Below, piece by piece: positions 2,561 through 59,771 of a stretch of DNA of 64,000 bases (positions are counted from its first letter, which is position 1; each line of letters starts with the position of its first letter). The DNA lies in the NCBI GenBank assembly GCA_016783155.1, contig JADHXB010000001.1, positions 1,228 to 65,227 of the forward strand, in the 5' to 3' direction. The DNA is from Dehalococcoidia bacterium. Lineage in GTDB: Bacteria; Chloroflexota; Dehalococcoidia; GIF9; UBA5629. Made by a program: the position numbers and the translations under genes. The notes beneath the pieces are model-generated. The model was not told the DNA's origin. It ran no database searches and saw nothing but the letters and a program-made list of their open reading frames with translations.

Positions 2561-3337
2561 TTGTTGCTCCAAGGAAAGGTTGCGGTCATTACAGGCTCAA
2601 CGTCAGGTATTGGCAAGGCTGGTGCCATTGTATTTGCTCAAGAAGGCGCAAAAAGCGTCGTTAGTGGTAGAAATCGCCAACGAGGGGAGGAGGTTGTGAG
2701 CATAATAAGGGAACAAGGCAATGAGGCAAGCTTCATTCCGGCTGATATGCTCGTAGTGGCTGATATTGAGCGGCTCGTTAAAATAACTGTTGATACTTAT
2801 GGTCGGCTGGATATCTTTTGGCATAATGCCGGCATAGTCGAGCCAGACTATATCGAAAATATCACAGAAGAAATATATGATAATATGATGGCAGCACACT
2901 TGAAAGCAGGTGTCTTCGGTGCAAAATTTGCCGTTCCTGAAATGCGTAAAGCCGGGGGAGGGTCCATTCTATTCACTAGTTCGGTTGCCGGGCTGAAGCA
3001 ATCCGGCTATTCATTGACCTATTCGCTGGCAAAGACTGGGCTTGTAATGCTAACCAAGAAACTCGCGGTAGATTTGGCTAAAGATAACATCCGAGTCAAT
3101 TCTATCTGTCCGGGTAGGGTTGAAACATCTATGAGATTATCTATTGCCGAGCAAAGAGGGCGAGCGATGGGCATTGACCAGGAGGAATGGGTGAGGAGAG
3201 ACAAGAAGCGTATACCTATGGGCAGGTACATCACCGAAAAGGAAGTAGTTGATGGGGCATTATTCCTTGTCTCAGATAGAGCCTCCTCAATTACGGGCGT
3301 TGCCCTCCCCATTGACGGTGGCTTCTTGGCGGTATAA
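2561..3337 (+). CDS. short-chain dehydrogenase/reductase (SDR)
   Basis: GKVAVITGSTSGIGKA Rossmann motif. Start is a TTG in the ORF track, so the true start is uncertain. Confidence 0.8.
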   Translation: MLLQGKVAVITGSTSGIGKAGAIVFAQEGAKSVVSGRNRQRGEEVVSIIREQGNEASFIPADMLVVADIERLVKITVDTYGRLDIFWHNAGIVEPDYIENITEEIYDNMMAAHLKAGVFGAKFAVPEMRKAGGGSILFTSSVAGLKQSGYSLTYSLAKTGLVMLTKKLAVDLAKDNIRVNSICPGRVETSMRLSIAEQRGRAMGIDQEEWVRRDKKRIPMGRYITEKEVVDGALFLVSDRASSITGVALPIDGGFLAV

Positions 3338-3452
3338 TATTTCGTCTGGAAATATTGGGTCAGCTTTACTGCTCCCTCTGGAACGAAGGTTTCCAGAGAG
3401 GTCGGTTAGCTGATTGGTGACATCGAATAAATAATATAGAAAGGAGATTTCA

Positions 3453-4202
3453 ATGGGAAGATTAGATGGGAAAGTGGCCATAGTGACCGGTGGGGGCAAG
3501 GGCTTGGGTAGGGCTTTTTGCTTTGGCCTTGCCAAAGAGGGGGCTAAGGTGGTGATGGCAGTACACCGCCTTGATGAAGAGGCAACGAAAGCAGCCAAGG
3601 AAATAGAGACTAAAGGCGGTTACGCTCTGGAAGTTGACGTTACTAAAGAAGAAGATACCCAGCGCATGGCTGAGGAGACAGTTAAGAAATTTGGGCGAAT
3701 CGATATTCTGGTTAACAATGCTGCCTACTACTATGGGGTGGGTAGGAAGCTGTTTTACGAGGTTTCGTCTGAAGAATGGGACCGGGCGTTGGCGGTGGGT
3801 GCCAAGGGAGCCTGGCTGTGCGCTAAAGCAGTATTCCCTCAGATGAAGAAACAGGGGAAGGGTAAAATTATTAACCTATCTTCCGAGACAGTATTTTCAC
3901 CTACCAAGGGTATGATTCACTACGTTACTTCCAAGGCTGCGGTTATCGGTATCACCCGGGTTCTTGCCGGAGAACTGGGGCAATATGGCATCTGTGTTAA
4001 TGCCGTAGCTCCTGGTTTTACTGATACTGCGGCAAGCCGAACTATAGGCAGTATCGAGAAGTTCGACGTAAGCTCTATCCCTCTGGGGCGTGTCGGAGTA
4101 CCCGAGGATGTAATTGGTAGCGTCATCTTCTTTGCCAGCGATGATAGCGACTTCGTTAGCGGACAAACATTACTGGTCGATGGTGCAAGGCGGGTGCACT
4201 AG
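3453..4202 (+). CDS. short-chain dehydrogenase/reductase (SDR), tandem paralog A
   Basis: GKVAIVTGGGKGLGRA glycine-rich NAD(P)-binding motif and a Tyr/Lys active-site region (HYVTSKAAV). GGAGA RBS before the ATG. Confidence 0.85.
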   Translation: MGRLDGKVAIVTGGGKGLGRAFCFGLAKEGAKVVMAVHRLDEEATKAAKEIETKGGYALEVDVTKEEDTQRMAEETVKKFGRIDILVNNAAYYYGVGRKLFYEVSSEEWDRALAVGAKGAWLCAKAVFPQMKKQGKGKIINLSSETVFSPTKGMIHYVTSKAAVIGITRVLAGELGQYGICVNAVAPGFTDTAASRTIGSIEKFDVSSIPLGRVGVPEDVIGSVIFFASDDSDFVSGQTLLVDGARRVH

Positions 4203-4267: not shown

Positions 4268-5020
4268 ATGGGAAGATTAAAAAATAAGGTAGCCATAGTG
4301 ACTGGTGGTGGCAGGGGGTTGGGTAAAACCTATTGCCTGAGAATGGCTGAGGAAGAAGCCAAAATAGTTGTGGCAGATATCCTTGACCGAGAGGCAGAGG
4401 AAACAGTCAGTGAAATCAAGGCAAAGGGTGGCAACGCCATTGCAATAAAAGCTGATGTGACCTCCGAAGCTGATACCCAGCGCATGGCTGAGGAAACAGT
4501 TAAGAAGTTTGGTCGAATCGATATCCTGGTTAACAGCGCTGGCTATTACTATGGGATGGTGAGGAAGCCATTTAATGAGGTCTCGTCAGAAGAGTGGGAC
4601 AAGGCGATGCTGGTGAATGCCAAGGGAACATGGCTTTGCTGCAAAGCAGTATTTCCCCAGATGAAAAAACAGGGGAAAGGTAAAATTATCAATGTATCCT
4701 CCGAGGCAGTTTTTGCCCCGACTAAGGGTTTTATTCACTACACTGCTTCCAAGGCTGCGGTTATCGGTATCACCCGGGTTCTTGCCGGAGAGCTGGGGCA
4801 ATATGGCATCTGTGTTAATGTGATAGTCCCTGGTGTCGTCGATACTGCGGCGACCAGAACCTACATCAATATCGAGAAGTTCGATATAGGTTCTGTCCCT
4901 CTGGGGCGTGTTGAACTGCCGGAGGATGTGGTTGGTAGCGTCGTCTTCTTTGCCAGCGATGATAGCGACTTTGTTAGCGGTCAGTCACTGCTAATCGATG
5001 GCGCGAGGCGGGTGCACTAG
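4268..5020 (+). CDS. short-chain dehydrogenase/reductase (SDR), tandem paralog B
   Basis: 250 aa, about 75% identical to the 3453-4202 product. Several nucleotide tracts are near-identical over more than 70 nt. Same SDR motifs. Confidence 0.85.
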   Translation: MGRLKNKVAIVTGGGRGLGKTYCLRMAEEEAKIVVADILDREAEETVSEIKAKGGNAIAIKADVTSEADTQRMAEETVKKFGRIDILVNSAGYYYGMVRKPFNEVSSEEWDKAMLVNAKGTWLCCKAVFPQMKKQGKGKIINVSSEAVFAPTKGFIHYTASKAAVIGITRVLAGELGQYGICVNVIVPGVVDTAATRTYINIEKFDIGSVPLGRVELPEDVVGSVVFFASDDSDFVSGQSLLIDGARRVH

Positions 5021-5115: not shown

Positions 5116-6831
5116 ATGTCCTGGACGTGGAACTTGTATGTCAGAGAATTTATGCCTCAAAGAGACCTGAAGAAATACCCGATGTGGTTCATGAACTTTG
5201 GCCATAGCTACCCGGCGTGGACGCCCCTATTTGGCTGGCACTGGAATTATGCCTTAGCTCACGGTCTCACATACGGCGTTAATGAGACATGGATACCTAC
5301 CATCAGGGGGAGTGAGGTTCGAAATATAGAAGGGTGTGCCCTAGCTGCCGCTTCCAGGATTAGTGATGAGGCTGAGATTGCGGAAAGAGAAAAGAAATTC
5401 AAAAAGTACATACTTGAAGAGTACGCTCCCAATTGGGACAAGCTTTATAAAGGTATGGAAGACGAAATAAATGGACTTTCTAAAAAGTTCAGGACTTATG
5501 ATTACGAAAAGGCAACACAGTACGAGTTGTACAAGGTATTCAGGGAGGCGGTACAGTATCTCTACCGTTCTTGGGAAGGTCACTTCTATATGATGTTTCC
5601 CATGTATACCGCCTACTGGTATTGTGACGAGATTGCTGCGGAATACGGCGGTGTACAGGAGTTTTCTCCCACATGGCATAAAATAATACGAGGCTATGAC
5701 AATGACCTTTTTGCGCAGGACAAAGCGCTATGGGGACTCCGTACCCGTGTCTTGGAGCTTAAGATTGAGGATATCTTCACTGAGAATGCTGCCTCCGAGG
5801 TAATCCCGGCTCTAAAAAAGACTGCGGCTGGTAAGGAATGGGTGGAGAAGGATCTAAACGATTTTTTGCTGGTAAAGGGCTGCGGTTGGCGCTCGCCGCG
5901 GATGATGGAGTTTATCATTCCTTCATGGTGGGAAGACCCAACGCCAGCCATAAATCACATTCAGCAATACCTCTCGCTGTCAAAGGACGTTAAAGCTCCA
6001 TTCCTACTTGATACCATAAGACCCCGCTTGGTCAAGGAGCGGGAAGAATTAACCCGTGACTTAATCGACAAAGTGAAGGCCGCCGGCTATCCCGACATGG
6101 ACTGGTTTCTGGCGCTCCTTAACGTGAGTCAGAGGACAAGCTCTTACAGCGAAAGTCATGATGTGGCATGGGAACAGGGGTGCTTGACCACCTTCCGCTA
6201 CTGTGTGAGGAAGATTGGAGAGAGGCTGGTAAAGTTTGGCACTATTGGAACTCCTGATGACATGTTCTTTTTCATTCCTGATGAACTGGAGTTATTTATT
6301 GCTTATCCCGACGCATACGATGTCAAAGACCTTGCTGAGGAACGCAAGAAAACCTGGACGGCACAGAAGGAATATAGCTCACGGCCGCCTATTTTTACCA
6401 GTGGACCATTAACACCGGAGGATATAAATAAGCATCAGGTTAGTGTTCACGATGCCATAGTTTCCAAGGTTGTTGCTGGTGTGGAAGCTGCCCGCAGGCC
6501 TGAAACCGGCGCCATCTGCTTTGGTAATTGCGGTAGTCCTGCTGGCACTGTCGAAGGCAGAGCACATCTGGTACTAGCAAATGAAGATGTATTTGCAGTG
6601 CAACCAGGCGATATTCTGATTTGTCCCTCTATGTCTTCGGGGTGGACTCCGGTGCTACCGCTGGCTAAAGCAATAGTCACTAATGGTGGCGGTTCTCTCA
6701 GCCATGCTTGCATTCACGGCAGAGAATATGATATTCCAGTAGTATCAAACACGCGTGATGCCACGATGGTTATCAAAGAAGGCGAAAAAATCCGGGTTGA
6801 TGCTACTGAGGGACTTGTCTTCCGAGTATAA
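5116..6831 (+). CDS. PEP-utilizing-enzyme mobile (phosphohistidine) domain protein, phenylphosphate synthase PpsA-like
   Basis: 571 aa. C-terminus TNGGGSLSHACIHGREYDIPVVS...IRVDATEGLVF matches the PEP-utilizers swivel domain with the phospho-His region. About 440 aa of N-terminal domain is unassigned. Strong RBS AAGGAGGG. Confidence 0.8.
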   Translation: MSWTWNLYVREFMPQRDLKKYPMWFMNFGHSYPAWTPLFGWHWNYALAHGLTYGVNETWIPTIRGSEVRNIEGCALAAASRISDEAEIAEREKKFKKYILEEYAPNWDKLYKGMEDEINGLSKKFRTYDYEKATQYELYKVFREAVQYLYRSWEGHFYMMFPMYTAYWYCDEIAAEYGGVQEFSPTWHKIIRGYDNDLFAQDKALWGLRTRVLELKIEDIFTENAASEVIPALKKTAAGKEWVEKDLNDFLLVKGCGWRSPRMMEFIIPSWWEDPTPAINHIQQYLSLSKDVKAPFLLDTIRPRLVKEREELTRDLIDKVKAAGYPDMDWFLALLNVSQRTSSYSESHDVAWEQGCLTTFRYCVRKIGERLVKFGTIGTPDDMFFFIPDELELFIAYPDAYDVKDLAEERKKTWTAQKEYSSRPPIFTSGPLTPEDINKHQVSVHDAIVSKVVAGVEAARRPETGAICFGNCGSPAGTVEGRAHLVLANEDVFAVQPGDILICPSMSSGWTPVLPLAKAIVTNGGGSLSHACIHGREYDIPVVSNTRDATMVIKEGEKIRVDATEGLVFRV

Positions 6832-7276: not shown

Positions 7277-9118
7277 ATGCGTGGTTATACTGGCAAGCTT
7301 TTGCGTATTAATCTAAGTAACCGTAGGAGCCAAGTCGAGGATATACCTGAGCAATTGATGAAGGATTTCCTTGGGGGGCGAGGTCTTGCTGTTAAGTATC
7401 TTTACAGCGAGCTTAAGCCTGGGGTAGACGCATTAGGGCCGGACAACAAATTGTTGTTCATGATGGGGCCCCTTGGTGCTACTACCGCCATGTCTGTTTC
7501 CAGAATAGCTGTAGTAACCAAGAGCCCTATCACTGGATGTATAGCTAAATCTATCGCAGGTGGCAACTTCGGTGCCTTCCTTAAGTTCGCTGGTTTCGAC
7601 GGGGTAATATTAGAAGGTAAGGCTGAGAAGCCAACTTATATCCATATTGATGGCGATGGGGTTCATATGCTGGATGCGGATGAAATTTGGGGGCTGGATA
7701 CTGAAGAAACTCAAATGAAACTGCGGCAGATGCATGGCAACTCAACGAAGACTATTTGTATCGGGCCAGCTGGGGAGAAGCTGGTTCGCTATGCCATAGT
7801 TATTAGCGAGCTCCGCTGTGGTGGGCGTACTGGCGTGGGTACCGTGATGGGAGCCAAAAACTTAAAGGCTATAGCTGTCAACTCATCCGGACCACTCGGT
7901 GTATATGACTCGCAGCAATTCAAAAGTTTAGCCAGGGAGCAGATCGAAGGCTTAAGGACAAGTCCCCGGCGGATTCAGATGACCGATTTTGGAACATCAT
8001 ACCTGACCTTAGGCTTTGAGAAGATGGGTATATTCCCGGTGAAGAACTTTCAGGAGGGACATCTTGAAGGTGTCGAGAAGATAAGCGATGAAGCATTCGC
8101 TAAGATAAAGGTCGGGAACAATGGTTGCTATGGCTGTATGACAAAGTGCGGTCAAGAACGCAGGGTAACTGAAGGCCCCTATGCCGGCGCCTTTAGCGAA
8201 GGACCTGATTATGAGTCCATCTGGTCTTTGGGTGGCAATTGGGCCAATACTAATTTGGGTTCTATAATAGCGGCAGACTCCCTCTGTGACAAGCTCGGCA
8301 TGGATACTATCAGCGCGGGTAGCGCTGTTGGCTTCGCCTGCGAGCTATTTGAAAGAGGGATAATTACCAAGAAAGATACCGATGGACTTGACCTTACCTG
8401 GGGTAACCATGGCGATATGCTAAAGCTAGTGGAGAAGATTGGCAGACGGGAAGGGTTTGGAGAGTTGCTTGGTGAAGGTACCAAACGAGCCGCCGAACAT
8501 ATTGGCAAGGGTGCTGAAGCCTATGCTATGCATGTCAAGGGCCTTGAGATTCCAGCCTATGAACCGCGCGCTGTTAAGGGCTATGGACTAATGTTTGCTA
8601 CTTCAAACATAGGTGCCAACCATATGTATGGTCGACCTAGGGAAGAACTAGCTGGCAAGGTGGATAGATTTGCTGATGAAGGCAAGGGCAAAGACATTGC
8701 CCGCAACCAAATAGCACAGGCAGTGGAAGACTCGGTTGTTCAGTGCAGCTTTACGCCTGCTACCGGGCTTACTCCCGAGTCACGTGCGAAGCTCCTTGTG
8801 GCAGCTACTGGGTTCAACGAGTTTAGTGACCCGGCCTATTTGGACCTGATAGGGGAAAGAATTCTTTGCCTTGAGCGTTCGTTTAATGTGCGTGATGGGT
8901 TCAGTCGCAAGGATGACACCCTCCCTGCCAGGATGCTAACCGAGCCCTTAAAGAATGCTGGCCCAGCTACGGGACAGGTAGTACGGAAGCTGGATACGCT
9001 TCTGGATGAGTATTATGATGCCCTTGGCTATTCTCCTCAAGGCATACCTACAACGGAGAAGCTGGGGCAAATAGGCTTAGACTGGGTGATAGAGGATATC
9101 AAGGGATTTGTTAAGTGA
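7277..9118 (+). CDS. aor: tungsten/molybdenum aldehyde:ferredoxin oxidoreductase (AOR family) #1
   Basis: 613 aa. N-terminus MRGYTGKLLRINLS typical of AOR_N; Cys-containing cluster region NNGCYGCMTKCG; C-terminal AOR catalytic domains. GGAGGTG RBS. Confidence 0.92.
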   Translation: MRGYTGKLLRINLSNRRSQVEDIPEQLMKDFLGGRGLAVKYLYSELKPGVDALGPDNKLLFMMGPLGATTAMSVSRIAVVTKSPITGCIAKSIAGGNFGAFLKFAGFDGVILEGKAEKPTYIHIDGDGVHMLDADEIWGLDTEETQMKLRQMHGNSTKTICIGPAGEKLVRYAIVISELRCGGRTGVGTVMGAKNLKAIAVNSSGPLGVYDSQQFKSLAREQIEGLRTSPRRIQMTDFGTSYLTLGFEKMGIFPVKNFQEGHLEGVEKISDEAFAKIKVGNNGCYGCMTKCGQERRVTEGPYAGAFSEGPDYESIWSLGGNWANTNLGSIIAADSLCDKLGMDTISAGSAVGFACELFERGIITKKDTDGLDLTWGNHGDMLKLVEKIGRREGFGELLGEGTKRAAEHIGKGAEAYAMHVKGLEIPAYEPRAVKGYGLMFATSNIGANHMYGRPREELAGKVDRFADEGKGKDIARNQIAQAVEDSVVQCSFTPATGLTPESRAKLLVAATGFNEFSDPAYLDLIGERILCLERSFNVRDGFSRKDDTLPARMLTEPLKNAGPATGQVVRKLDTLLDEYYDALGYSPQGIPTTEKLGQIGLDWVIEDIKGFVK

Positions 9119-9155: not shown

Positions 9156-10001
9156 CTACTGCTTCTGGCGTTGCCGGTAAGCTTCAATGTAACGTCTGGC
9201 ATGTCTATCGCGACCCAGGATGAGGTCAGTGGCCACAATGGCTGGTCGCACCTTGGCTGCATCTGTGATGAGGCAGGTGATACCTGCGGCAACAGCCATA
9301 GCTACGAAGGCATTATTGAGCAAGCCGCGGTCAGGCAAGCCAAAAGAGATATTGCTGGCTCCCAGTGTCATGTTCACTCCCAATTCAGCCTTAATCCTCC
9401 GAATGGCTTCTATGACTTCCGGTCCAGAGCTGGTATCGGCTCCTACGGCGAAAGCCAGGCAATCAATGACAATGTTCTCTCGGGCGATACCAGCTGCCTC
9501 AGCACGCTCCACTATCTTATGGGCAATGCTTACCCTACGTCCTGCATCCTTTGGTATACCATCATCGTCTTGTACCAAACCAACGACTGCTGCTCCATAT
9601 TCTTTCACCATAGGTAGAACCCTGGTTAAGGAGTGTTCTTCACCGCTAACAGAGTTGATGAGCGGTTTGCCCTTGTAGATTTTGAGAGCTGCTTCCAAAG
9701 CCGCCGGATTATTACTGTCAAGGCATAGAGGTATATCTACGGTGTCCATCACTGCCTGCACTGCCTGGGGGAGCAGTGTTACCTCGTTCACGCCGAATGT
9801 GCCTACGTTAACATCAAGAATGTCAGCCCCGGCTTGTACTTGAGCCAGGGCTTCACTGCGTACAATATCCAAGTTGCCCGCCTTCAGAGCCTCTTGAAGT
9901 TTTGTTTTCCCGGCAGGATTGATACGCTCGCCGATAAGCACTGTGGGTTGGGCATCACCGATTATTACTTCTTTTGTGGGGCTTGACACTATCGTTTCCA
10001 T
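9156..10001 (-). CDS. pterin-binding methyltransferase (MtrH/AcsE-like; methyl-corrinoid:tetrahydrofolate methyltransferase, MT-II)
   Basis: 281 aa with a pterin-binding TIM-barrel pattern (..VLIGERINPAGK..DILDVNVG..PLCLDSNN..). Last gene of the corrinoid operon; start overlaps the RACo stop. Confidence 0.8.
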   Translation of the reverse strand: METIVSSPTKEVIIGDAQPTVLIGERINPAGKTKLQEALKAGNLDIVRSEALAQVQAGADILDVNVGTFGVNEVTLLPQAVQAVMDTVDIPLCLDSNNPAALEAALKIYKGKPLINSVSGEEHSLTRVLPMVKEYGAAVVGLVQDDDGIPKDAGRRVSIAHKIVERAEAAGIARENIVIDCLAFAVGADTSSGPEVIEAIRRIKAELGVNMTLGASNISFGLPDRGLLNNAFVAMAVAAGITCLITDAAKVRPAIVATDLILGRDRHARRYIEAYRQRQKQ

Positions 10002-12577: not shown

Positions 12578-12679
12578 GTATTTCTCTTTCGGGGCCTTGC
12601 CAGTGGCGATAGCATGCCATCAGCATGGCCCCGATACACAGCCTCTCCTCCACCATTATAACCTCAGCCCGTCGAGTAT

Positions 12680-14017: not shown

Positions 14018-14053
14018 ATTTTATTTCCTCCTGTATATCTTTGCTAAGGATTC

Positions 14054-49133: not shown

Positions 49134-49189
49134 ACTAATGCATTAATCTCAAAGGCAAGAACTGATAGAAAACTAGTGGAGATGGAGAG

Positions 49190-50434: not shown

Positions 50435-50452
50435 ACTTAAGAGGTAAAAATA

Positions 50453-51832
50453 ATGGCCAATAGCATCACAATAGTTGGTGGTGGACCCGGTGGCTATGTA
50501 GCCGCCATCAGAGCAGCCCAACTGGGCACACAAGTTACCTTAATTGAGAAGGACGCTCTCGGGGGAACTTGTCTCAACCGCGGTTGCATCCCCACCAAAG
50601 CATTACTGCAATCAGCTGACCTTCTCGAGAAAATCAAGCATTCCGAAACCTTTGGTATCTCAGCGGAGAAGATATCTCTGGATTTCTCAGCGGTAATCAA
50701 GCGGAAGGAAGCTGTAGTAAAGCGGTTGGTAGATGGCGTTGCCTATCTGATGAGAAAGAACAAGATTAAGGTCATTAAAGGCACCGGTGCTCTGATTGAT
50801 TCCAAGACAGTGGGAATTTTAGGAGGAAACGATAGAATAAGTTCTGACAGCATCATTATTGCCACGGGCTCGAAGCCCTCTACAGTTCCCATTAAGGGCA
50901 TCGATGAGCCCGGTGTCATAAGCAGTGATGAAGCTTTGGCCATGGGCCAGCTTCCCAAAAGCATGGCCATCATCGGTGGAGGGGTGATTGGGTTGGAATT
51001 CGCCCAGATCATACACAAGATGGGAGGCAAGGTAACTATTATAGAGATGATGCCTCAAATACTGCCCGCCGAGGATGCAGAAATTGCCCGCATGCTCGAG
51101 GATATATTGAAGAAAGAAGGTATTGAAGTCTTCACTGATGCCATGGTCACCAACATCGGGAGCGACAAACAAGGTAAGAAAGTTTCTTTCACCACCAAAG
51201 ATGGTAGTAAACAAGAAATAGCAACAGATAAGGTACTGATCGCTGTAGGAAGACAACCCTGTACCGATGACCTTGGAGTAAATAAACTGGGTCTTGCCAT
51301 GGATAAAAGTAGGCTAGTTGTCAATGAATACCTGAGGACTAATGTTCCGAATGTCTATGCCATCGGTGACGTAACAGGAGGGCTCATGCTGGCTCATAAG
51401 GCCATGGAAGAGGGTAAATGTGCAGTGGAGAATGCACTAGGTGCTGAGAGCAAGATGGATTATCGCACTGTCCCCCGGTGTGTTTATACTTCCCCTGAAG
51501 TAGCAGGGGTTGGGCTAACTGAAACTTTAGCCAGAGAGGAGTATGGGAATATTAAGGTCGGGCGATTCCCCTTTACCGCTAGCGGTAGGGCAGTAATACA
51601 AAATGAGACAGCGGGTATAGTGAAAATTATTGCCGATGCCAAATATGGGGAAATTCTGGGCATACACATAATCGGCCCTCAAGCCACTGAGTTAATCGCT
51701 GAGGCTGTTCTCGGAATGAAATTGGAAGCCACTTTTGAAGACATTGCCTCTACCATTCATGCGCACCCCACCCTATCGGAAGCAGTGATGGAAGCTGCTC
51801 TAAATGTTGAAGGAAAAACCATCCATTCCTAA
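50453..51832 (+). CDS. lpdA: dihydrolipoamide dehydrogenase E3
   Basis: 459 aa. GGGPGGY FAD motif, redox-active disulfide GGTCLNRGCIPTK, and C-terminal HAHPTLSE interface motif. Confidence 0.9.
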   Translation: MANSITIVGGGPGGYVAAIRAAQLGTQVTLIEKDALGGTCLNRGCIPTKALLQSADLLEKIKHSETFGISAEKISLDFSAVIKRKEAVVKRLVDGVAYLMRKNKIKVIKGTGALIDSKTVGILGGNDRISSDSIIIATGSKPSTVPIKGIDEPGVISSDEALAMGQLPKSMAIIGGGVIGLEFAQIIHKMGGKVTIIEMMPQILPAEDAEIARMLEDILKKEGIEVFTDAMVTNIGSDKQGKKVSFTTKDGSKQEIATDKVLIAVGRQPCTDDLGVNKLGLAMDKSRLVVNEYLRTNVPNVYAIGDVTGGLMLAHKAMEEGKCAVENALGAESKMDYRTVPRCVYTSPEVAGVGLTETLAREEYGNIKVGRFPFTASGRAVIQNETAGIVKIIADAKYGEILGIHIIGPQATELIAEAVLGMKLEATFEDIASTIHAHPTLSEAVMEAALNVEGKTIHS

Positions 51833-52538
51833 TCCACAGAGAGGATTCACCTCTAAGACAAGCCTGTGTCAGGTATATGATCTCGGCACAGTTGATTATG
51901 AGAAAGCCCTGCAACTGCAAAATAAGCTGGTGTCAGCCCGCATTGCCGCTGAAATTCCAGATACAATCCTGTTTCTTCAGCACCCTTCAGTACTGACGAT
52001 TGGAGTGTCTGGAAATGAGGAAGGCGTCATTGCCTCGAGAGATCTGCTGGCTCAAGAAAGAATAGCTATCTTCCATATCGACCGCGGAGGAGGCATTACC
52101 TACCATGGCCCAGGGCAGTTAGTAGGATATCCGATTATCGATCTCAGGACAAAAGGAATAGGGCCAACGCAATATGTGCGTCACCTGGAGGAGGTAATCA
52201 TACGAGCCTTGGCTACCTTCTCTATTACTGCCAATCGCGACCCTGAATATCCTGGTGTCTGGGTAGGACAGGACGAGATTTGCGCCCTGGGAATTCGGGT
52301 GATTCACTGGGTCACCATGCACGGATTCGCTCTGAATGTGAACACCGACCTGAAGTACTTCACCTACATTACTCCTTGCGGTATTACCGATAGGCAGGCA
52401 ACCTCGATGTCGCGGTTGCTGGCACACGACATTGCTTTAGAGAATGTAGTTCCGTGTATAATTGAGCAGTGGGCACAGGTTTTTAATATGAAGATTAGGC
52501 AAGAATCTGCCGAGGAGCTATTACGCTATGTCCAGTAA
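51804..52538 (+). CDS. lipB: lipoyl(octanoyl) transferase
   Basis: 244 aa. HIDRGGGITYHGPGQLVGYPI matches the LipB active-site region. Overlaps the E3 3' end, so the true start may be later. Confidence 0.8.
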   Translation: MLKEKPSIPNPQRGFTSKTSLCQVYDLGTVDYEKALQLQNKLVSARIAAEIPDTILFLQHPSVLTIGVSGNEEGVIASRDLLAQERIAIFHIDRGGGITYHGPGQLVGYPIIDLRTKGIGPTQYVRHLEEVIIRALATFSITANRDPEYPGVWVGQDEICALGIRVIHWVTMHGFALNVNTDLKYFTYITPCGITDRQATSMSRLLAHDIALENVVPCIIEQWAQVFNMKIRQESAEELLRYVQ

Positions 52539-53388
52539 ACATCCAGGGTGGATGATAAAGAAGACTCCATCCACATCCATCATTGCTGAGATGAGCGTGC
52601 TAATCGATGGGCTATCGCTTCATACCGTCTGTCAGAGTGCTCTATGCCCCAACCTGGGGGAGTGTTTTTCGCATCAAACTGCTACCTTCCTGATCATGGG
52701 AAATATTTGCACTCGTAATTGCAGTTTTTGTGCTATCAACAAAGGAAAAGGTTTTGCCCTTGATCCAGATGAGCCCTGGAACGTCGCCCGGGCCGTCAGT
52801 AAACTGAAGTTGCACCATGTCGTCGTTACTTCAGTAACCAGGGACGACCTTCCCGATGGAGGAGCCACACACTTCACCAGAACGATAAACGCCATCAGGC
52901 AAACCAGTCCCCAGGCTACCATCGAGGTTCTCATTCCTGATTTTAAGGGCTCCCTCGAGGCGCTCAAAACTGTTGTGGATAGCTCCCCAGAAGTTGTCAA
53001 TCATAATGTGGAAACTGTGCCACGCCTATACTCCGAGGTACGCCCCAAAGCTGATTACCATCGCTCCTTGAATCTATTACGGACAGTGAAATCCCTGAAC
53101 AGAAACATATTAACCAAATCTGGGCTGATGGTGGGGTTGGGAGAGGAACATGACGAGATAGTAAATGTAATGGAAGAGCTCCGCACAGTACAGTGTGATT
53201 TCCTGACTATCGGACAATACCTGGCACCATCACCGAAGCACTACCCAGTGGCAAGGTATGTTACTCCCCAGGAGTTCGAAGAGTATAAGAGCTTAGGGGA
53301 GAGGATGGGCTTTAGCTATGTAGCGTCAGGCCCCTTCGTGCGTAGTTCTTTCAGGGCAGCGGAAATGGTGGCATCTAAGCCGCATTAA
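52528..53388 (+). CDS. lipA: lipoyl synthase (radical SAM)
   Basis: 286 aa. CPNLGEC auxiliary cluster motif and CTRNCSFCA radical-SAM CxxxCxxC motif. Confidence 0.9.
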   Translation: MSSKHPGWMIKKTPSTSIIAEMSVLIDGLSLHTVCQSALCPNLGECFSHQTATFLIMGNICTRNCSFCAINKGKGFALDPDEPWNVARAVSKLKLHHVVVTSVTRDDLPDGGATHFTRTINAIRQTSPQATIEVLIPDFKGSLEALKTVVDSSPEVVNHNVETVPRLYSEVRPKADYHRSLNLLRTVKSLNRNILTKSGLMVGLGEEHDEIVNVMEELRTVQCDFLTIGQYLAPSPKHYPVARYVTPQEFEEYKSLGERMGFSYVASGPFVRSSFRAAEMVASKPH

Positions 53389-53510
53389 GGCACACAAGAT
53401 GGATTGCGGATAAGCAAGTAACCTTTATGCAATTTAACTAAATCTACGAATCGAGATATTCGAAGTAGTGAACTCTGCAGCCAGCTAGGTATATAAGAGA
53501 AGGGAAAAAG

Positions 53511-55274
53511 ATGAAAGGGTTTTTTAATAAAGTACTACATGTGGATTTAACTGGTCGAACCTACTGGGTGGAAGAGCTAAAAGACGAGGCATTATCTTCC
53601 TGGCTAGGAGGGCGAGGGTTGGGCTGCTATCTTCTCTGGAAGACCCTGAAAACGGGCATCGATCCCCTATCTCCCGAGAATTCACTCATTTTTGCCACAG
53701 GTCCAGCTGCAGCAACAAAAATGCCAGGATCCAGCCGCTACGGCGTCTATAGTAAATCACCCCTGACCAATTTTTTCGCTGATTCCTATGCCGGAGGTCA
53801 TCTCGCTCCGCAGATGAAAAAAACTGGTTACGATGCTATTATCGTTCATGGGGCCTCCTCGTCGCCAGTGTTCCTGGAAATCTCATCCGATGGAGCTAGA
53901 TTTTGGGATGCTTCTGACCTATGGGGAAATAGCACCTACGAGACAGAGGAGCAATGTCTGAGCAAAGTTAACATCCCTGGAGCCCAGGCTTTGGTAATCG
54001 GCCCTGCTGGTGAGAATCTGGTAAGATTTGCTTGTATTGTGAACAATCGCTGGCGTAATGCCGGCCGAACAGGGATGGGAGCAATCATGGGCTCCAAGAA
54101 GCTCAAGGCCATGGTCTTTCACGGAGAAAAGGAATGTGAAATAGCCGATCCAGGATTGCTGGATAGTCTGGTACATGACCTTACAGAGCGAGGAAAAAAC
54201 GACCCTACAGTTCGAAGGTACCGGGAATTGGGGACACCAATGCTGGTGGCAACAACTAATCTGGCTGGCGCTTTTCCTGCTGAGTATTGGTCGAAGGGAA
54301 CACTTCCGGGATGGGAAAAGATTTCTGCAGAAACTATGCAAAGAGATTTCGAGGTAAAAGCAAGGGCTTGTACACGTTGCTTTCTTGCTTGCGGGAAACT
54401 AACCACAGTAACCCAGGGAAGACACAGGGGGCTGACTCTTGAAGGGCCAGAGTACGAGACCATTTATAGTTTCGGAGGCTTATGCAAGATCCTGGATCTG
54501 GCAGAAATCATATACCTGAATGACATCTGTGATAGGCTCGGAATAGATACCATAACTGCCGGTAATATAGTGGCTTTCTGCATGGAGTTATCCAAGAGAG
54601 GAAAACTTTCTGAAAAGGTTGATTATGGTAATCCCGACCATGCTGCGGAGTTGCTACACAAAATTTGCCAGAGGGAAGGATTGGGTGATACGCTGGCAGA
54701 AGGGATAAATAAAGCGAGTCAAGTTCTGGGTGCCGAAGACCTGGCTATCCATGTTAAAGGATTAGAGCCGGCTGGATATGACCCCCGCGTGCTTAAAGGT
54801 ATGGCACTCGGTTATGGTATATCACCACGCGGAGCCTGTCACCTGCCAGCAACATATTATATCTTTGAACTACGCGGGGTAGTAAATCCATCAGAAATAC
54901 AAGGAAAAGCAGAGTCGTACATTGGTTATGAAGACAGGCTTACAATTATGGATACCATGATTCTCTGTCGGTTCTTTAGGGACATGATCGGTTGGCCAGA
55001 GTTAATTAAGCTTATCAAAGCTACGACTGGTTTGGAATTCGATGAGTCAGGGCTAAGAGAGCTAGCTAATAATATAACTACCCTGAGGCATTTAATAAAC
55101 ATCCGGGAAGGATGGAACAAAGAAAATGATATGCTGCCAGCACGCTTATTAGATGAGCCCATCAATGGGCATCGGGTTACCAAAGACGAGCTTAACTACA
55201 TGGTGAATGAATACTATCAACTAAGGGGTTGGGATGAGGATGGTAAACCACTTAAAGAGCTTAGCATTGAGTAA
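53511..55274 (+). CDS. aldehyde:ferredoxin oxidoreductase family protein #4 (shorter, divergent paralog)
   Basis: 587 aa. MKGFFNKVLHVDLTGRTYWVEE N-terminus and AOR-like domain order, but clearly more divergent than AOR #1-3. Confidence 0.82.
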   Translation: MKGFFNKVLHVDLTGRTYWVEELKDEALSSWLGGRGLGCYLLWKTLKTGIDPLSPENSLIFATGPAAATKMPGSSRYGVYSKSPLTNFFADSYAGGHLAPQMKKTGYDAIIVHGASSSPVFLEISSDGARFWDASDLWGNSTYETEEQCLSKVNIPGAQALVIGPAGENLVRFACIVNNRWRNAGRTGMGAIMGSKKLKAMVFHGEKECEIADPGLLDSLVHDLTERGKNDPTVRRYRELGTPMLVATTNLAGAFPAEYWSKGTLPGWEKISAETMQRDFEVKARACTRCFLACGKLTTVTQGRHRGLTLEGPEYETIYSFGGLCKILDLAEIIYLNDICDRLGIDTITAGNIVAFCMELSKRGKLSEKVDYGNPDHAAELLHKICQREGLGDTLAEGINKASQVLGAEDLAIHVKGLEPAGYDPRVLKGMALGYGISPRGACHLPATYYIFELRGVVNPSEIQGKAESYIGYEDRLTIMDTMILCRFFRDMIGWPELIKLIKATTGLEFDESGLRELANNITTLRHLINIREGWNKENDMLPARLLDEPINGHRVTKDELNYMVNEYYQLRGWDEDGKPLKELSIE

Positions 55275-55293: not shown

Positions 55294-55908
55294 TCACTCC
55301 TCGTGTGTAGTTCCGGGATTATGCGGAATTTGAGATACCACGTAAGGGGCTTCGCCCTGGCAGCCAAGGCATATTTCCCCATCAGCAAGCGGATAAGCTT
55401 CTTTACAGCTGGGACAAATGGCAAATCCAGTTCTATGCAGCTTTTTCAGGAAACGGGGTGCAATCTTAACTTGCTGGATACTGCAAATATTTGCTCCGGC
55501 TTCCTTAATCTGTTTCATCAAGAGTTGAGAGTCCTGTTCCTTCTTGGGCTTCAGGTTGAAAAACCAGCTTTTAATCTCGGGCCATGATTCTACCTTAGCC
55601 GAATCCAGAAAAACTCGTATCCCTTTACCATTGTATTTATCGTAAAGAGTCATGGCATAACGGCCCATATTGATGACTCTAAGCCAGCCGTTCCCGACAG
55701 TGCAGGGCGTGAGAAGCTGTATGGCATCTGGTAGACAGTGGGCAGTTTCGCTGATAGCATCAAATAGTCCTTCTTCAGGAAGGTGCTGGTACGCTAGATC
55801 TATCATAAACCCGCCAATGATCACGCCCGGAGCGACAAAGCCATGGAAGCATTGGATCCGCTCAATATATTCTTCAAAGGTATAGGAACAAATATTCATG
55901 GACACCAC
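55294..55908 (-). CDS. FmdE-family protein with C-terminal zinc ribbon
   Basis: 204 aa. FHGFVAPGVIIGG...ETAHCLPDAIQLLTPCTVGNG matches the FmdE core. C-terminal CPSCK...CLGC ribbon. Lies between AOR#4 and the second Mo-enzyme operon. Confidence 0.75.
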   Translation of the reverse strand: MVSMNICSYTFEEYIERIQCFHGFVAPGVIIGGFMIDLAYQHLPEEGLFDAISETAHCLPDAIQLLTPCTVGNGWLRVINMGRYAMTLYDKYNGKGIRVFLDSAKVESWPEIKSWFFNLKPKKEQDSQLLMKQIKEAGANICSIQQVKIAPRFLKKLHRTGFAICPSCKEAYPLADGEICLGCQGEAPYVVSQIPHNPGTTHEE

Positions 55909-55929: not shown

Positions 55930-56772
55930 TTAGAGGTAGATCGTCCCAGCATAAAGGCTTTTCTTTAGGTTAACCTCGATGGTTTTTGTGTCATAACCCG
56001 CATAAGCTATCTGGAACGTGTATTTGCCGCTATTTTCTTCAAGGTTGTCAAACTTAAAATCGCCGTAGTTATCGGTCACACACTGGCTAACTTTCTTATT
56101 GGCGGCATTGAAAATGGTTACTGTAGCGCCTTCGGCACATTCATCTTTGCCATCTACCCGGACCGCAACGCTGCCACCGATGAAACATCGGGTAAACCGA
56201 TGCAGATTCTTGTAATAGACACGAGGGCTGGTTTTATGTTCCGGCTGATAGACTTCAAGCTTCTCGGCCTTGATGATTTCCTGCATCTCAGCGTCCTCGA
56301 CACAATGAACGCTTAATGCCCCTGTAGGGCAGGACTCTACACAGCGGGTTTTCATCCAGCCGTCATCGAGCAAATGGGCACAAAAAGCGCATTTTTGAGG
56401 TACTCCGAGCTCCTCGTTCCACCAAATAGCACCATAGGGGCATGCATTGATAACGTTTTTCTGCCCCTTTGCCTTGACTGGGTCAATAATAATGATGCCA
56501 TCAGGTCTCTTGTATATTGCTCCATCCTTAGCTGCTTTGATACACGGTGCATTGGCACAGTGCATGCACGGTACAGGCAGGTAAGCGACATCGATGAAAG
56601 GATACTGTCCTCGTTCCTTTCCGTGGATGTTTATCCATTTTTGTCCACGATTGGGCTGTGGTGCTGAATATCCCGGCCAATCATTGTCCACGTGCTCGTC
56701 CTTGCAAGACAAAAAACAGTTATTACAGTTTCCACATTTTTCTATGTCAATGATCAAATACCATTTCTTCAT
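55930..56772 (-). CDS. molybdoenzyme Fe-S beta subunit, BthL-like, paralog 2
   Basis: Same Cys-cluster layout and C-terminal beta-domain as the 39884-40714 product. ORF track starts at 56817, but alignment to paralog 1 and an AGGA SD favour the MKKWYLIIDIEKC start at 56772, just after the alpha stop. Confidence 0.82.
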   Translation of the reverse strand: MKKWYLIIDIEKCGNCNNCFLSCKDEHVDNDWPGYSAPQPNRGQKWINIHGKERGQYPFIDVAYLPVPCMHCANAPCIKAAKDGAIYKRPDGIIIIDPVKAKGQKNVINACPYGAIWWNEELGVPQKCAFCAHLLDDGWMKTRCVESCPTGALSVHCVEDAEMQEIIKAEKLEVYQPEHKTSPRVYYKNLHRFTRCFIGGSVAVRVDGKDECAEGATVTIFNAANKKVSQCVTDNYGDFKFDNLEENSGKYTFQIAYAGYDTKTIEVNLKKSLYAGTIYL

Positions 56773-56783
56773 TATAGATTTTC

Positions 56784-59771
56784 CTACCCCGTCCATTTCT
56801 CGATTTGCACAAGGCAAGAATTTGCGGCAAAGCTATGCGATTTTTTGATCATTGGCCGACTTGGGGTCAATATATTCATACATCCGCCACGATCTGGTGA
56901 AAGCCCTGGCTCACCTATCGGATCATATATTGCCGCGGATTCATATGAGTGAACAGTCCCGGGGGGAACCCTTTCGGTCACCTGGGCCGCACAGATAACG
57001 GCACCCCGGTCATTGAACACCTTGACCAGGGCGCTCTCTTTGATTCCACGCGCCTCAGCATCCTTCGAGTTGATCCGCACAATCCAGTAGTAATAACCAT
57101 CAATCGGTACTCTGTGGTCCTTTATATCGTTGATCCAGCTATCTTTACCATCGCCCATAGTATGAAAGCTGTACCTTGGATGAGGGGTTATCAATTGCAA
57201 CGGGTACTTTTGAAACAGTTCAGTGGTATGATGACCCTCCCAAGAGGGAATGTATTTGGTCATAACCGGTCTCTCCGGGTCGTCAGGATCGAACCGTTTC
57301 AGGCTGGAACATACAAATTCCAGCTTGCCCGATTGTGTCTGAAGCCCTCTAAATACTTGTTCGGTGTAGTCAGCCGGTAATGGTGCTATCTCCGGTGTGT
57401 CTTTTAGTCTGTCCTCCGCAAACCACCTAAAGGAGACAGGATGTCTTAACTCCTCCTTGGGTGCGGGGACGACATAGTAGCCCTTCTTCAGGAACTTCTT
57501 CCACGACATGACCTTTGGAACATCTGTGGCATCAAATAATCGCTTGCACCAGTCAAATTCAGTTACACCCTCGGAAAATATAGCAGCAAATCCCAGCCTC
57601 TTCGCCAGCTCAAGAAAAATCTGGAAGTCTGATTTTGATTCGCCTAAAGGTTCGATGCACTTGTGCTGCATGAGGATAACACGATGGTTGCACTGATTGA
57701 AGCTATGCTGGACATATCCGCCGCAGTTAGCAAATTCGCTGATATCCCATCGCTCAAAGCTAGTGCAAGCAGGTAGTATAATATCGGCAAATTTGGCTTC
57801 ACCTTCAAACCAGATGGACTGGTTGACTACAAACTCCAAATTGTCGGACCGGTATGCCCTCACATAGCGGTTTGTCTCAGGCATGGTGCCGATATGAGAG
57901 CCTCCGTATTTATAGTACATCTTGATTGGCGGATAGCCAGGTGCCGGATAGTCAAACCTAAGGAACTGGCCTTCAATTGTCTTCGAGTCAGTGGGATAGC
58001 CGTAGGTGTGGCCATCCAGGATTGCCTCTGGAATATTCAGCCGAGGCACCCGCTGATACACCGTGTTAACAGTGGGGAGCTGTGGGAACCGCGAGAAAAG
58101 ACTAACGCCAAGCGCAGTAGCAGCTAGGTCTCCTGACATGCCTCCCTCGGCATAACCCGGGAAATAAAAGCTGGTGTCGAGCGGTGTTCCTTGCTGCATA
58201 CCGCCCATGTTTACTCCGGGTTTGCCCAAGCCCTGCATAGCCATAAGGCAGACCATAGAACGAGCCCATTCATTACCAGTGGCACAGCGGCAGGCGCTGC
58301 CGAAACCGGTTATTCCTCCTGCTGCCAGGTAAGTCCTTTTGGTTCCCCATTCTCTAGCCAGAGCCCTGACATCTTTGGCCGGAATTCCAGCCTCATTTTC
58401 TTGCCATTCAGGAGTCTTGGGGGTTCCGTCTTCTTTGCCCAATATATAGTCTTTCCATTCGTCAAACCCAATCGTATGCCTGGCAACATACTCTTTGTCG
58501 TAAAGACCCTCGGTAATCCAGACATAGGCAATTGCCAAGGCTAGAGAATTACCTGTTGCCGGCCTGGGAGCAAACCACTTGCCGCCGAATAGAGCTGCTG
58601 TATGGTTATAGAATGGATCTATATGTACCATCTTGATACCCAGTTCTTTCAACCATTGACGGCGGACGGTGCCTTCAAAGGCACCGTAGACACCGCTGGT
58701 AGCTTCCGGATCGCTCGACCAGAATACCACCATTTCACATTCTTTAAGGCAATCTTCAACCGTGCCATAGCTCTCTGGGGCACCAAGCCGCATACTGTGC
58801 CCCCAGTGATGCATGGCTCCCCAGTACCATCCCTCCCAGCTGTCCGGATTATGGACGACAGGGGTCCAGCCAACGTTATTAAAAAATCTCAGTCTGATGC
58901 CTAGCCAGTAGCCCAAGTTTCCCCACAAGTGGTGAGACCCACTGCCATTCAGAATTGCCCCTGGGCCATAATTCCTTTTCACACGCTTTATCTCATTAGC
59001 GACAACATCGAGCGCCTCTTGCCAACTGATGCGCTTGTAACCTGAGATTCCCCGGTTCTGGCAATTTCTTTCACCATTCGGGTCAAAATCGACTCGTTTC
59101 ATAGGGTATAAAATTCTGTCCGGTGAATAGATCATAGATTTAAATACCAAGGTATGAGGCGAGATGGTTGTTTTGCGTGGAGGAGTAAAAGCCCTGCCTC
59201 TTGCTTTAATGGTCCAGGGTTTAGCATCACTGTTGTCAAACTCAATGGGTGTGATCCGTATAATCCTACCATCTTTCACATAGACAAAGACCGGACCGCC
59301 ATTGGTATTGCTGGTATATCTGATGACATCTTTACCAACCTTCGTTCCATATTTGGTGCCAGCGTTCAGCATTAGACTCAGTGTCTCCATCCACCAGTAA
59401 CTTAACTCATCGGTACCGTCCAACCATAATTGAAAGCTTTTCATAGCATTAACCATGGCCAGCTGGTCGCGGGGCGGCACAAGGATATCAAGAGCTATTC
59501 GGGCGCTTCCGAAAATCATGGTAACATCAGGGCTGGCATAAATACCGCTCTTGGAAATAACCTTACCATCACGGATAGCAAAATACCTGCCACGTGAATT
59601 GTCCTTGAGCTTTATTTGCACAGTCAGATTTTTCTCCTTAAGCCGACTCTTGAAGAACGGAAACCTCATTGCCGTCAGCCCAAACAGCATCCTCACGCCA
59701 AGAAGTACTATTGAAAAGAGCAGGTTTGCCAGTGGCAATGATTTTGATAATGTATTCACTATTGATTTCAT
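56784..59771 (-). CDS. molybdopterin catalytic alpha subunit, transhydroxylase (AthL)-like paralog 2, with ~130-aa N-terminal extension
   Basis: 995 aa. Residues ~135-995 align with the 864-aa paralog (..[23 protein letters not shown]..). ATG at 59771 has an AGAGGG SD. The extension carries a hydrophobic helix and an SCP2-like stretch. No RR Tat motif. Confidence 0.85.

Follow-up and report, generated by a model that had tools for sequence, protein, structure and literature searches.

How could an anaerobic Dehalococcoidia bacterium degrade plant-derived phenolics? This question is raised by positions 1,228 to 65,227 of contig JADHXB010000001.1 (assembly GCA_016783155.1), a stretch of 64,000 nt that was analysed as a whole and is called the window here. 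In anoxic sediments and aquifers, few uncultured bacteria are as abundant as the Dehalococcoidia and related Chloroflexota, whose diet has largely been inferred. A sequence-only reading had proposed that the genes of the window together form one route for methoxylated or trihydroxylated aromatics via phloroglucinol. Non-overlapping open reading frames (ORFs) were called across the window, all 48 of them were scanned against Pfam, and the larger intergenic gaps were also inspected for ORFs (Table 1); every gene class listed by that reading was recovered in its place. Judging from its gene content, the region is probably a plant-phenolics catabolic neighbourhood with a complete phloroglucinol route at its core, while the genes around this core are separate modules and not steps in a single linear pathway. 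The main point of that reading, that trihydroxybenzenes are catabolised via phloroglucinol, is supported by AthL-type molybdenum enzymes, by an operon downstream of them and by synteny in many genomes.

The window encodes two AthL/BthL-type Mo-bis-PGD enzymes, with the large subunits Mo1 and Mo2. Against the large subunit of the pyrogallol hydroxytransferase of Pelobacter acidigallici (AthL, PDB 4v4c), Mo1 scored 1166 bits and Mo2 1127 bits, with full-length identities to AthL of 60% and 59%, and the AhtL-like first domain PF21423 was found in both. Their closest characterised relative is thus a pyrogallol transhydroxylase and not an enzyme acting on unrelated substrates. The small subunits BthL1 and BthL2 are 45-51% identical to the products of the genes located directly 3' of AthL in Holophaga foetida and Eubacterium oxidoreducens. 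AthL homologues were surveyed at 80 loci from 80 other genomes (P. acidigallici itself was not among them), where the surrounding ±10 kb were searched by tblastn with all window and downstream-operon proteins. A BthL homologue followed the AthL homologue in 74 of the 80 loci. All co-occurrence counts given here are lower bounds, because metagenome loci are often short. Members of the cluster bear JGI/IMG names such as trimethylamine N-oxide (TMAO) reductase, which would make Mo1 and Mo2 generic S- or N-oxide reductases apart from aromatic metabolism. This explanation is highly improbable, since dimethyl sulfoxide and TMAO reductases scored only about 250 bits, since the PF21423 domain and a BthL-type partner are present, and since there is synteny with the phloroglucinol operon described below.

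The two enzymes differ in their predicted substrate pockets. In an alignment of 96 AthL-like ORFs from 80 other genomes, residues were read at AthL positions 144, 152, 153, 154, 174, 175, 176, 354, 404 and 560. The pocket roles (Mo-ligand Ser175; H144, R153, D174, W176, W354, Y404 and Y560) are those reportedly assigned in the AthL structure paper (Messerschmidt 2004), and the residue numbers were confirmed against the sequence of 4v4c. Mo1 retains 10 of the 10 residues checked (H144, Y152, R153, H154, D174, S175, W176, W354, Y404 and Y560), a signature that is also that of AthL and of the H. foetida and E. oxidoreducens copies. Both of these bacteria convert pyrogallol. The alignment separated three classes. 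Class I (HYRHDSWWYY, without extension) includes AthL, the H. foetida and E. oxidoreducens enzymes, those of gut Clostridia, and Mo1. Class II (HYWLDSWFYY, with 145-190 additional N-terminal residues) includes Mo2 and enzymes from Desulfobacterota and other Dehalococcoidia. Class III (HYY[IL]DSW[LHF]YY) is extended too and is proteobacterial. Mo1 is the best candidate for a true pyrogallol-phloroglucinol transhydroxylase. A 76-aa zinc-ribbon ORF (MPIYEFFCPKCG...CPPCG, 43503-43733) occupies part of the 700 bp that separate Mo1 from the neighbouring cupin gene; its likeness to FmdB-type regulators was seen by eye only.

Mo2 retains H144, D174, S175, W176, Y404 and Y560 and carries the changes R153W, H154L and W354F. 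Its N-terminal extension (59322-59771, residues 1 to about 150) gave no match in Pfam and is common to at least 20 orthologues; the extension is present in classes II and III. An AlphaFold2 model of it built on a 50-homologue alignment (pLDDT 90, pTM 0.80) showed a long hydrophobic helix and, after it, a domain with the SCP2 fold. In Foldseek, the best matches of this model were UbiJ-SCP2, alkylsulfatase SCP2-like domains and sterol carrier proteins (SCP2), with E values of about 1e-5. The modelled SCP2 domain and helix suggest a hydrophobic ligand, or a contact with the membrane or with quinones. Two stand-alone SCP2 proteins are also encoded in the window (21995-22408 and 22567-22983). The FmdE-like gene next to BthL2 was seen solely beside class II homologues in the 80-locus survey, and its product is likely an accessory or maturation factor for the class II enzyme. 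The proposal of two transhydroxylase-like Mo enzymes therefore stands for the family, since both are of AthL type and Mo1 has the full signature, but Mo2 lacks three pocket residues and belongs to a distinct clade. By sequence, Mo2 resembles the family, but it is not to be classified as a pyrogallol transhydroxylase.

The genes expected for the following steps were found directly beyond the window. Three independent assemblies (L004, L005 and L006) share 11,087, 10,472 and 5,182 bp with the window end at 100% identity. All three continue with genes for two ABC permeases, a short-chain dehydrogenase/reductase (SDR, 254 aa), a Cyclase-family protein (PF04199, 253 aa), a Cupin_2 protein (112 aa) and a 3HCDH-family protein (317 aa). 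The longest assembly, L004, then adds two CoA_trans genes, a 93-aa ORF and a BKACE gene (311 aa). The operon lies on one strand at L004 12839-19270, which corresponds to 65.7-72.2 kb in window numbering, or 1.7-8.2 kb past the window end. Its BKACE protein scored 409 bits against the NCBIfam model NF053538 (3,5-dioxohexanoate:acetyl-CoA acetone transferase) and 280 bits against the lysine-pathway Kce model; of the four BKACE models, NF053538 led by 130 bits. SDRs 41-83% identical to the operon SDR adjoin cyclases in other genomes. The sequence-only reading had asked that the full genome be searched for enzymes that reduce phloroglucinol, hydrolyse dihydrophloroglucinol and cleave triacetate. 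With members of the SDR, cyclase and BKACE families just past the window, this search was positive. The 112-aa cupin gene, between those of the cyclase and the 3HCDH protein (L004 14440-14778, window-equivalent about 67353-67691), has a product 32% identical to the window cupin (44018-44374), and it is absent from the Clostridium scatologenes cluster genes named in the available text of PMC10470551.

The operon and AthL-type genes were also found together elsewhere. Within 10 kb of AthL homologues, the survey detected SDRs like phloroglucinol reductase (PGR) in 22 of the 80 loci, BKACE in 20, 3HCDH in 19, the cyclase in 15, the 112-aa cupin in 14 (46-81% identity) and components of the ABC transporter in 19-23. 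In the Dehalococcoidia loci L040 and L041, the order SDR-cyclase-cupin-3HCDH-BKACE is followed by a Mo1 orthologue (83-84% identity), class II enzymes abut the same operon in L049, L050, L057 and L063, and the same transporter adjoins AthL homologues in L040, L058, L027, L018 and L020. At least two phloroglucinol genes were present within 10 kb in 15 of 43 class I loci, in 5 of 18 loci with class II alone and in 1 of 18 class III loci. Since these genes occur beside both class I and class II, both window Mo enzymes belong to clades that travel with the operon. RidA-family genes, one of which lies next to Mo2 in the window, recur beside the ABC transporter, AthL2 or phloroglucinol genes (as in L088, L120 and L091), with up to 93% identity in 7 of 80 loci of the M24 gene described below.

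Several points weigh against this interpretation. The operon is located outside the 64-kb window and was joined to it through identical overlaps from other samples; no cyclase-, 3HCDH- or BKACE-type gene of the phloroglucinol pathway was found by Pfam among the 48 ORFs of the window. The 409 bits of the BKACE protein are slightly under the curated NF053538 cutoff of 430. The operon SDR scored 143 bits to 5g4k and 198 to gluconate 5-dehydrogenase, so that 5g4k is not its top match; we take 5g4k to be the solved Clostridium phloroglucinol reductase, although its listing merely calls it an SDR-family oxidoreductase. Since no NCBIfam equivalog cutoff was reached by the SDRs of the window or of the operon, their substrates cannot be named. 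The operon cyclase is of the short Mycobacterium/UniRef50_A5U375 type and not of the biochemically tested 336-aa clostridial type. Its solved relatives are kynurenine formamidase and isatin hydrolase alone (about 40 bits), with no dihydrophloroglucinol cyclohydrolase (DPGC) structure among them. No UbiD-type gallate decarboxylase was found in the window or in the flanks of about 9 kb on each side. The loss of three transhydroxylase pocket residues in Mo2 counts on the same side.

The phloroglucinol route would then run as follows. The ABC system would import the substrate, and Mo1/BthL1 would turn pyrogallol into phloroglucinol in a redox-neutral transfer of a hydroxyl group, with 1,2,3,5-tetrahydroxybenzene as the cosubstrate, the transhydroxylase mechanism being assigned by homology. 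The operon SDR would reduce phloroglucinol with NADPH, the cyclase-family enzyme would open the ring of dihydrophloroglucinol to give 3-hydroxy-5-oxohexanoate, and the 3HCDH-type dehydrogenase would oxidise this to triacetate. The BKACE enzyme would convert triacetate and acetyl-CoA to acetoacetate and acetoacetyl-CoA, which the CoA transferase would pass on towards acetyl-CoA. Mo2, BthL2 and the FmdE-like protein may constitute a second hydroxyl-transferring or hydroxylating enzyme of different specificity, which probably feeds phloroglucinol from another hydroxylated benzene. At the level of families, the corrinoid system and the ACMSD-family protein might supply gallate-type substrates by processing methoxylated acids, as happens in Holophaga, and the remaining modules may serve other phenolics.

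Between Mo1 and Mo2, the window carries genes for a cupin, a HIBADH-type beta-hydroxyacid dehydrogenase, an M24/creatinase-like hydrolase, an E1E2E3 complex, LipB, LipA and an aldehyde:ferredoxin oxidoreductase (AOR) (44018-55274). The M24 protein retains four of the five prolidase metal ligands and has Cys263 in place of the second metal-binding Asp. This D-C-H-E-E set, including Cys263, is invariant in 128 bacterial and archaeal M24 homologues, all at least 73% identical, and the family is highly conserved (at least 70% identity across phyla). In the E1E2E3 complex, the thiamine pyrophosphate (TPP) motif, the lipoyl-Lys and the DHRVLDG motif are intact. A survey of 80 metagenome loci with M24 (32 of them at least 10 kb long) showed E1alpha in 36, E1beta in 31, E2 in 27, HIBADH in 27 and an AOR4-like gene in 23 (14 at 50% identity or more). 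The commonest order in these loci was a divergent AOR, then M24-HIBADH-E1alpha-E1beta-E2-E3. The order cupin-HIBADH-M24 is kept in L087, L088, L085 and many metagenome loci; a Thermoanaerobacteraceae metagenome-assembled genome (MAG) has M24-HIBADH-cupin ... E1alpha-E1beta, and E1-E2-E3-M24 occurs in other neighbourhoods. In an archaeal contig, the order is 3HCDH-BKACE-RidA-PBP-ABC-cupin-M24-HIBADH-E1alpha-E1beta-E2-LipB-cyclase-cupin-SDR, PBP being a periplasmic binding protein.

An ordinary pyruvate dehydrogenase (PDH) and an ordinary prolidase or aminopeptidase, placed by chance beside aromatic genes, would be another explanation of these genes. E1beta and E3 score above the NCBIfam cutoffs for PDH and lipoamide dehydrogenase, M24 has the Pyrococcus prolidase as its best solved relative, and transhydroxylase or strict phloroglucinol-operon genes were present in only 7 of the 32 long M24 loci. 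We consider this explanation improbable. M24 and E1/E2 are adjacent in 22 of the same 32 loci and in many lineages, often with HIBADH, cupin and AOR, and archaeal contigs embed the module inside the phloroglucinol operon. E1alpha (360 bits, cutoff 394) and E2 (351, cutoff 445) fall under the PDH equivalog cutoffs, and an invariant Cys replaces a metal-binding Asp in M24. The conserved M24-E1/E2 neighbourhoods, the invariant Cys263 and the missed PDH cutoffs therefore lead us to read 44018-55274 as one module. At some loci this module is linked to AthL-like enzymes or to genes of the phloroglucinol route. The 2-oxoacid dehydrogenase, which had been taken for a generic source of acetyl-CoA, belongs to this conserved M24-HIBADH-E1E2E3-AOR module.

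A locus of a Phaeospirillum sp. MAG (L085 8448-22218) contains a LysR gene followed, on one strand, by genes for a class III AthL, BthL, HIBADH, a cupin, an ABC transporter, M24 and an aldehyde dehydrogenase. Its M24 protein is 60% identical to that of the window, and the locus is an alphaproteobacterial counterpart of the Mo1-side neighbourhood.

The chemistry of the module may consist of a hydrolase reaction, then a TPP/lipoyl complex that cleaves or oxidises a C-C bond, then aldehyde oxidation. It is conceivable, if well short of probable, that 44018-55274 is an undescribed and widespread catabolic module that acts after AthL-like Mo enzymes on a hydroxylated ring, bypassing phloroglucinol, and that Mo2 in parallel represents a new SCP2-domain clade of phenol hydroxyl-transferring or hydroxylating enzymes with a substrate of its own. 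A candidate would be a non-oxidative route for hydroxyhydroquinone (HHQ), in which M24 would be a ring- or bond-opening hydrolase, the TPP/lipoyl complex would cleave an alpha-dicarbonyl, acyloin or 2-oxoacid to acyl-CoA, and the AOR or the HIBADH enzyme would take the aldehyde product. The assignment of M24 as the dihydrophloroglucinol hydrolase was considered and dropped, since DPGC is a cyclase-family enzyme according to PMC10470551 and a cyclase gene was found downstream. A literature search for links between M24 enzymes and phloroglucinol or transhydroxylases returned no reports.

An oxidative HHQ route, as in Aromatoleum anaerobium and Thauera aromatica AR-1, could also account for all or part of the region. 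A trihydroxybenzoate would first be decarboxylated by an ACMSD-type enzyme, and a Mo hydroxylase would then make HHQ. A complex like pyruvate dehydrogenase would cleave the oxidised ring to acetate and malate, and malic enzyme would take the malate. The BqdLMS complex of A. anaerobium is reported to be pyruvate-dehydrogenase-like. In the window, the TPP/lipoyl E1E2E3, Amidohydro_2 and malic-enzyme-like genes flank Mo1 (the last product scored 244 bits against the NCBIfam NADP-malic-enzyme subfamily, cutoff 1178), and in A. anaerobium, BqdLMS cleaves the ring downstream of an AthL-like hydroxylase (PMC10084136). Moreover, in the Phaeospirillum MAG the HIBADH, cupin and M24 genes share an operon with those of a class III AthL-like enzyme and of an aldehyde dehydrogenase, and the N-terminal extension of Mo2 also occurs in that proteobacterial class. 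This route is nevertheless unlikely here. No BtdLS-like HHQ dehydrogenase (DoxX-type membrane subunit) was detected by Pfam on the called genes, with the gaps checked for ORFs; Mo1 carries the complete transhydroxylase signature, and its orthologues adjoin phloroglucinol operons, as class II enzymes likewise do. The module also occurs in strict anaerobes (Thermoanaerobacteraceae and archaea), in which nitrate-linked oxidation is unlikely. The phloroglucinol route thus remains the preferred reading of the core.

Table 1. Features of the 64,000-nt window, in window coordinates
Feature	Position	Strand	Basis and remarks
PEP-utilizers/Rph_4th protein, partial	1-933	-	Pfam; gene runs off the window start (L001 11038-12801)
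PPDK_N ATP-binding subunit	930-1970	-	Pfam
Three SDRs, the last two in tandem	2561-3337, 3453-4202, 4268-5020		Pfam
Second PEP-utilizers/Rph_4th protein, after the three SDRs	5116-6831	+	Pfam
ThiS/MoaD-like ORF, 90 aa	6968-7240		Pfam, 22.6 bits, at gathering cutoff; directly upstream of AOR1
AOR1	7277-9118		Pfam
Methyltransferase II (MT II), pterin-binding	9156-10001	-	Pfam, NCBIfam
RACo activator	10001-11851	-	Pfam
Met_synt_B12-like protein, 229 aa	within 9156-14686	-	Pfam
Methyltransferase I (MT I), UroD-type	12680-14017	-	Pfam
Corrinoid protein, B12-binding	14054-14686	-	Pfam
Two FAD_binding_4 flavoproteins, CCG/Fe-S subunit, benzoate-CoA ligase family enzyme	15410-21699	-	Pfam, NCBIfam
Two SCP2 proteins, Fe-ADH, AOR2, acyl-CoA ligase, FrhB-like, thiolase+DUF35, SDR4, PaaK-family ligase, AOR3	21995-35626	+	Pfam
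Thiolase + DUF35 pair	29560-31297	+	Pfam
Amidohydro_2 (ACMSD-family) protein	36069-37031	-	Pfam; only decarboxylase candidate of the contig
Malic-enzyme-like protein, 461 aa	38115-39500	+	Pfam; divergent from BthL1/Mo1
BthL1, Fe-S small subunit of Mo1	39884-40714	-	Fer4_11 + C-terminal CarboxypepD_reg
Mo1, AthL-type molybdopterin large subunit, class I, 864 aa	40718-43312	-	Full-length match to PDB 4v4c_A
Cupin	44018-44374	-	Pfam
HIBADH-type beta-hydroxyacid dehydrogenase	44425-45309	-	Pfam, NCBIfam
M24/creatinase-like hydrolase, D-C-H-E-E ligand set	45523-46752	-	Pfam, PDB alignments
E1alpha, E1beta, E2, E3, LipB, LipA	47128-53388	+	Pfam; divergent from M24 gene
AOR4	ends 55274	+	Pfam; 47128-55274 including AOR4
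FmdE-like protein with zinc finger	55294-55899	-	Pfam
BthL2, Fe-S small subunit of Mo2	55930-56772	-	Pfam (Fe-S + C-terminal CarboxypepD_reg); 280-aa gene call in L004
Mo2, AthL-type large subunit, class II, 995 aa	56784-59771	-	Match to 4v4c_A over residues 148-995
RidA-family protein	59947-60390	-	Pfam
Periplasmic binding protein	60554-61867	-	Pfam
Two ABC ATPases	62134-62853, 62914-63645	+	Pfam

The other genes of the window, which include four SDRs, three AMP-forming ligases and four AORs by Pfam, show little linkage to the core. At 40% identity or more, homologues of the PPDK/PEP-utilizer, AOR, corrinoid, FAD/CCG, SCP2, Fe-ADH, thiolase/DUF35, Amidohydro_2, E1/E2/E3 and CoA ligase genes were each found near AthL in 0-3 of the 80 loci. 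The sequence-only reading had assigned ring reduction to SDRs including the tandem pair, thiolytic and beta-oxidation-like processing to the thiolase + DUF35 pair and the acyl-CoA ligases, and aldehyde intermediates to the AORs, and these assignments found mostly no support. The tandem SDRs share 73% protein identity and 83% DNA identity with each other, against just 41% with the operon SDR, and sit with phenylphosphate-synthase-like genes and not beside AthL. The operon has its own BKACE and CoA transferase, the thiolase + DUF35 pair and the ligases do not accompany AthL homologues, and one ligase (20095-21699) passes the benzoate-CoA ligase family model TIGR02262 (620 bits, cutoff 375). With the tandem SDRs, the thiolase + DUF35 pair and the CoA ligases apart from AthL, and one ligase of benzoate-CoA type, the island is thus a mosaic of modules.

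The PPDK_N and PEP-utilizers/Rph_4th genes at the window start are arranged like those for the beta and alpha subunits of phenylphosphate synthase, a likeness at the domain level only. No UbiD-type phenylphosphate carboxylase was found in the window or in the flanks of about 9 kb read on each side, and no homologues of the PPDK_N and PEP-utilizers genes were found near AthL or M24 in the 80 + 80 loci surveyed. The flavoprotein set at 15410-21699 contains a 534-aa flavoprotein whose top match is p-cresol methylhydroxylase (9h40), followed by eugenol oxidase and vanillyl-alcohol oxidase, which places it nearest to the VAO/PCMH family. Together with the ligase, these matches suggest a 4-alkylphenol or benzoyl-CoA-type branch apart from the phloroglucinol route. 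An 86-aa Cys-rich ORF (15037-15297) lies upstream of this set. The genes at 21995-35626 miss all NCBIfam equivalog cutoffs, the thiolase being an archaeal-type "thiolase domain" protein, and showed no synteny with AthL or M24 loci; they form a putative side-chain or acid-processing module.

The corrinoid genes have the four-part architecture expected of O-demethylation, as had been proposed, but are almost absent near AthL. MT II passes the NCBIfam model for methyl-tetrahydrofolate:corrinoid methyltransferases (295 bits, cutoff 259). Among solved structures, MT I has CdmB (9rui, E value 3e-36) as its sole relative, and the detectable likeness is confined to the C-terminal 250 residues. CdmB belongs to a UroD clade that also holds the O-demethylase MT I enzymes MtvB, OdmB, VdmB and MtoB, and acts on chloromethane (PMC13222342). 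The substrate of MT I (a methoxy-aromatic, a haloalkane or other) cannot be read from its sequence, because this only solved relative uses chloromethane. The system is probably an aryl-methyl-ether O-demethylase, going by its gene families. The proposed decarboxylation has a candidate in the Amidohydro_2 protein, whose fold is related to ACMSD (118 bits), LigW (108) and gamma-resorcylate decarboxylase (88), with about 28% identity at best, but no homologue was found near AthL in any of the 80 loci. It is possibly a hydroxybenzoate decarboxylase.

In two other Chloroflexota (L046 4774-5607 and L052 16041-17279), MT I homologues (44-50% identity) and class II AthL genes lie no more than 10 kb apart, and at L154 5-808 a gene whose product is 66% identical to the Amidohydro_2 protein of the window directly adjoins an M24 gene. 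These neighbours are weak hints that accessory genes are sometimes linked to the core.

Nucleotide composition is even along the window, without a break, and an Rfam scan of the whole window gave no RNA genes. The "island" is therefore a gene neighbourhood and not a demonstrable mobile element. Its interest lies in the physical linkage of transhydroxylase genes, a transporter and a recently characterised type of phloroglucinol operon, which gives a testable basis for the anaerobic turnover of tannin- and lignin-derived trihydroxybenzenes by Dehalococcoidia and other Chloroflexota. The R153/H154/W354 signature could serve as a practical marker that tells likely true pyrogallol transhydroxylases apart from the two other clades, which are at present annotated without distinction or, wrongly, as TMAO reductases. 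Leads to chemistry still without assigned genes come from the conserved M24-E1E2E3-AOR module and from the clade with the fused SCP2 domain.

Several AthLS-like operons have been reported in subsurface Chloroflexi (RBG-2, RBG-1351 and DEH-C11) and read as pyrogallol use, and the available text of these reports makes no mention of a link to a phloroglucinol operon, a class split or an SCP2 extension (PMC3971608, PMC4959651). The core described here is already of a known pathway type, because such transhydroxylase-like operons have been reported in Chloroflexi, the phloroglucinol operon has been characterised and its Chloroflexi homologues have been listed. The residue-based split of AthL homologues, the SCP2-fold extension of classes II and III and the M24-HIBADH-E1E2E3-AOR module were not found described in the literature searched. 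The corrinoid system resembles MtvABC, OdmABCD, Mto and the chloromethane system CdmBCA in having a UroD-type MT I, a corrinoid protein, a pterin-binding MT II and a RACo-type activator, and differs from CdmBCA in that its MT I matches CdmB detectably over the C-terminal 250 residues only. The HHQ pathway of A. anaerobium (RehLS, BtdLS and BqdLMS) likewise brings together an AthL-like Mo enzyme and a TPP/lipoyl dehydrogenase-type complex, a likeness drawn from descriptions. Unlike that system, the present one is without a BtdLS equivalent, has an E1 of the two-gene alpha/beta type, and belongs to a strictly anaerobic lineage.

The downstream operon is similar to the PGR/DPGC/TfD/TAL/CtfAB cluster of C. 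scatologenes, in which, according to PMC10470551, PGR is an SDR, DPGC is of the cyclase family, TfD is of the 3-hydroxyacyl-CoA-dehydrogenase type and TAL is a BKACE protein. The SDR, PF04199 cyclase, 3HCDH, CoA transferase A/B and BKACE genes form a same-strand operon here too, and the supplement of that paper already lists 253-aa DPGC homologues from Dehalococcoidia/Chloroflexi. In contrast to the cluster as given there, the present operon has the short 253-aa cyclase and the 112-aa cupin, is without a butyrate-fermentation context, and is linked to transhydroxylase genes and an ABC transporter. The Mo enzymes can be aligned end to end with AthL of P. acidigallici (AthL/BthL, PDB 4v4c/4v4d/4v4e), share S175, D174, H144, Y404 and Y560 with it, and are each paired with a BthL-type subunit that carries Fe-S and Ig-like domains. 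Mo2 departs from AthL by its 150-residue helix and SCP2-fold extension, its three changed pocket residues and its FmdE-like neighbour, and the host is here a member of the Dehalococcoidia, whereas P. acidigallici is a Desulfuromonadales fermenter.

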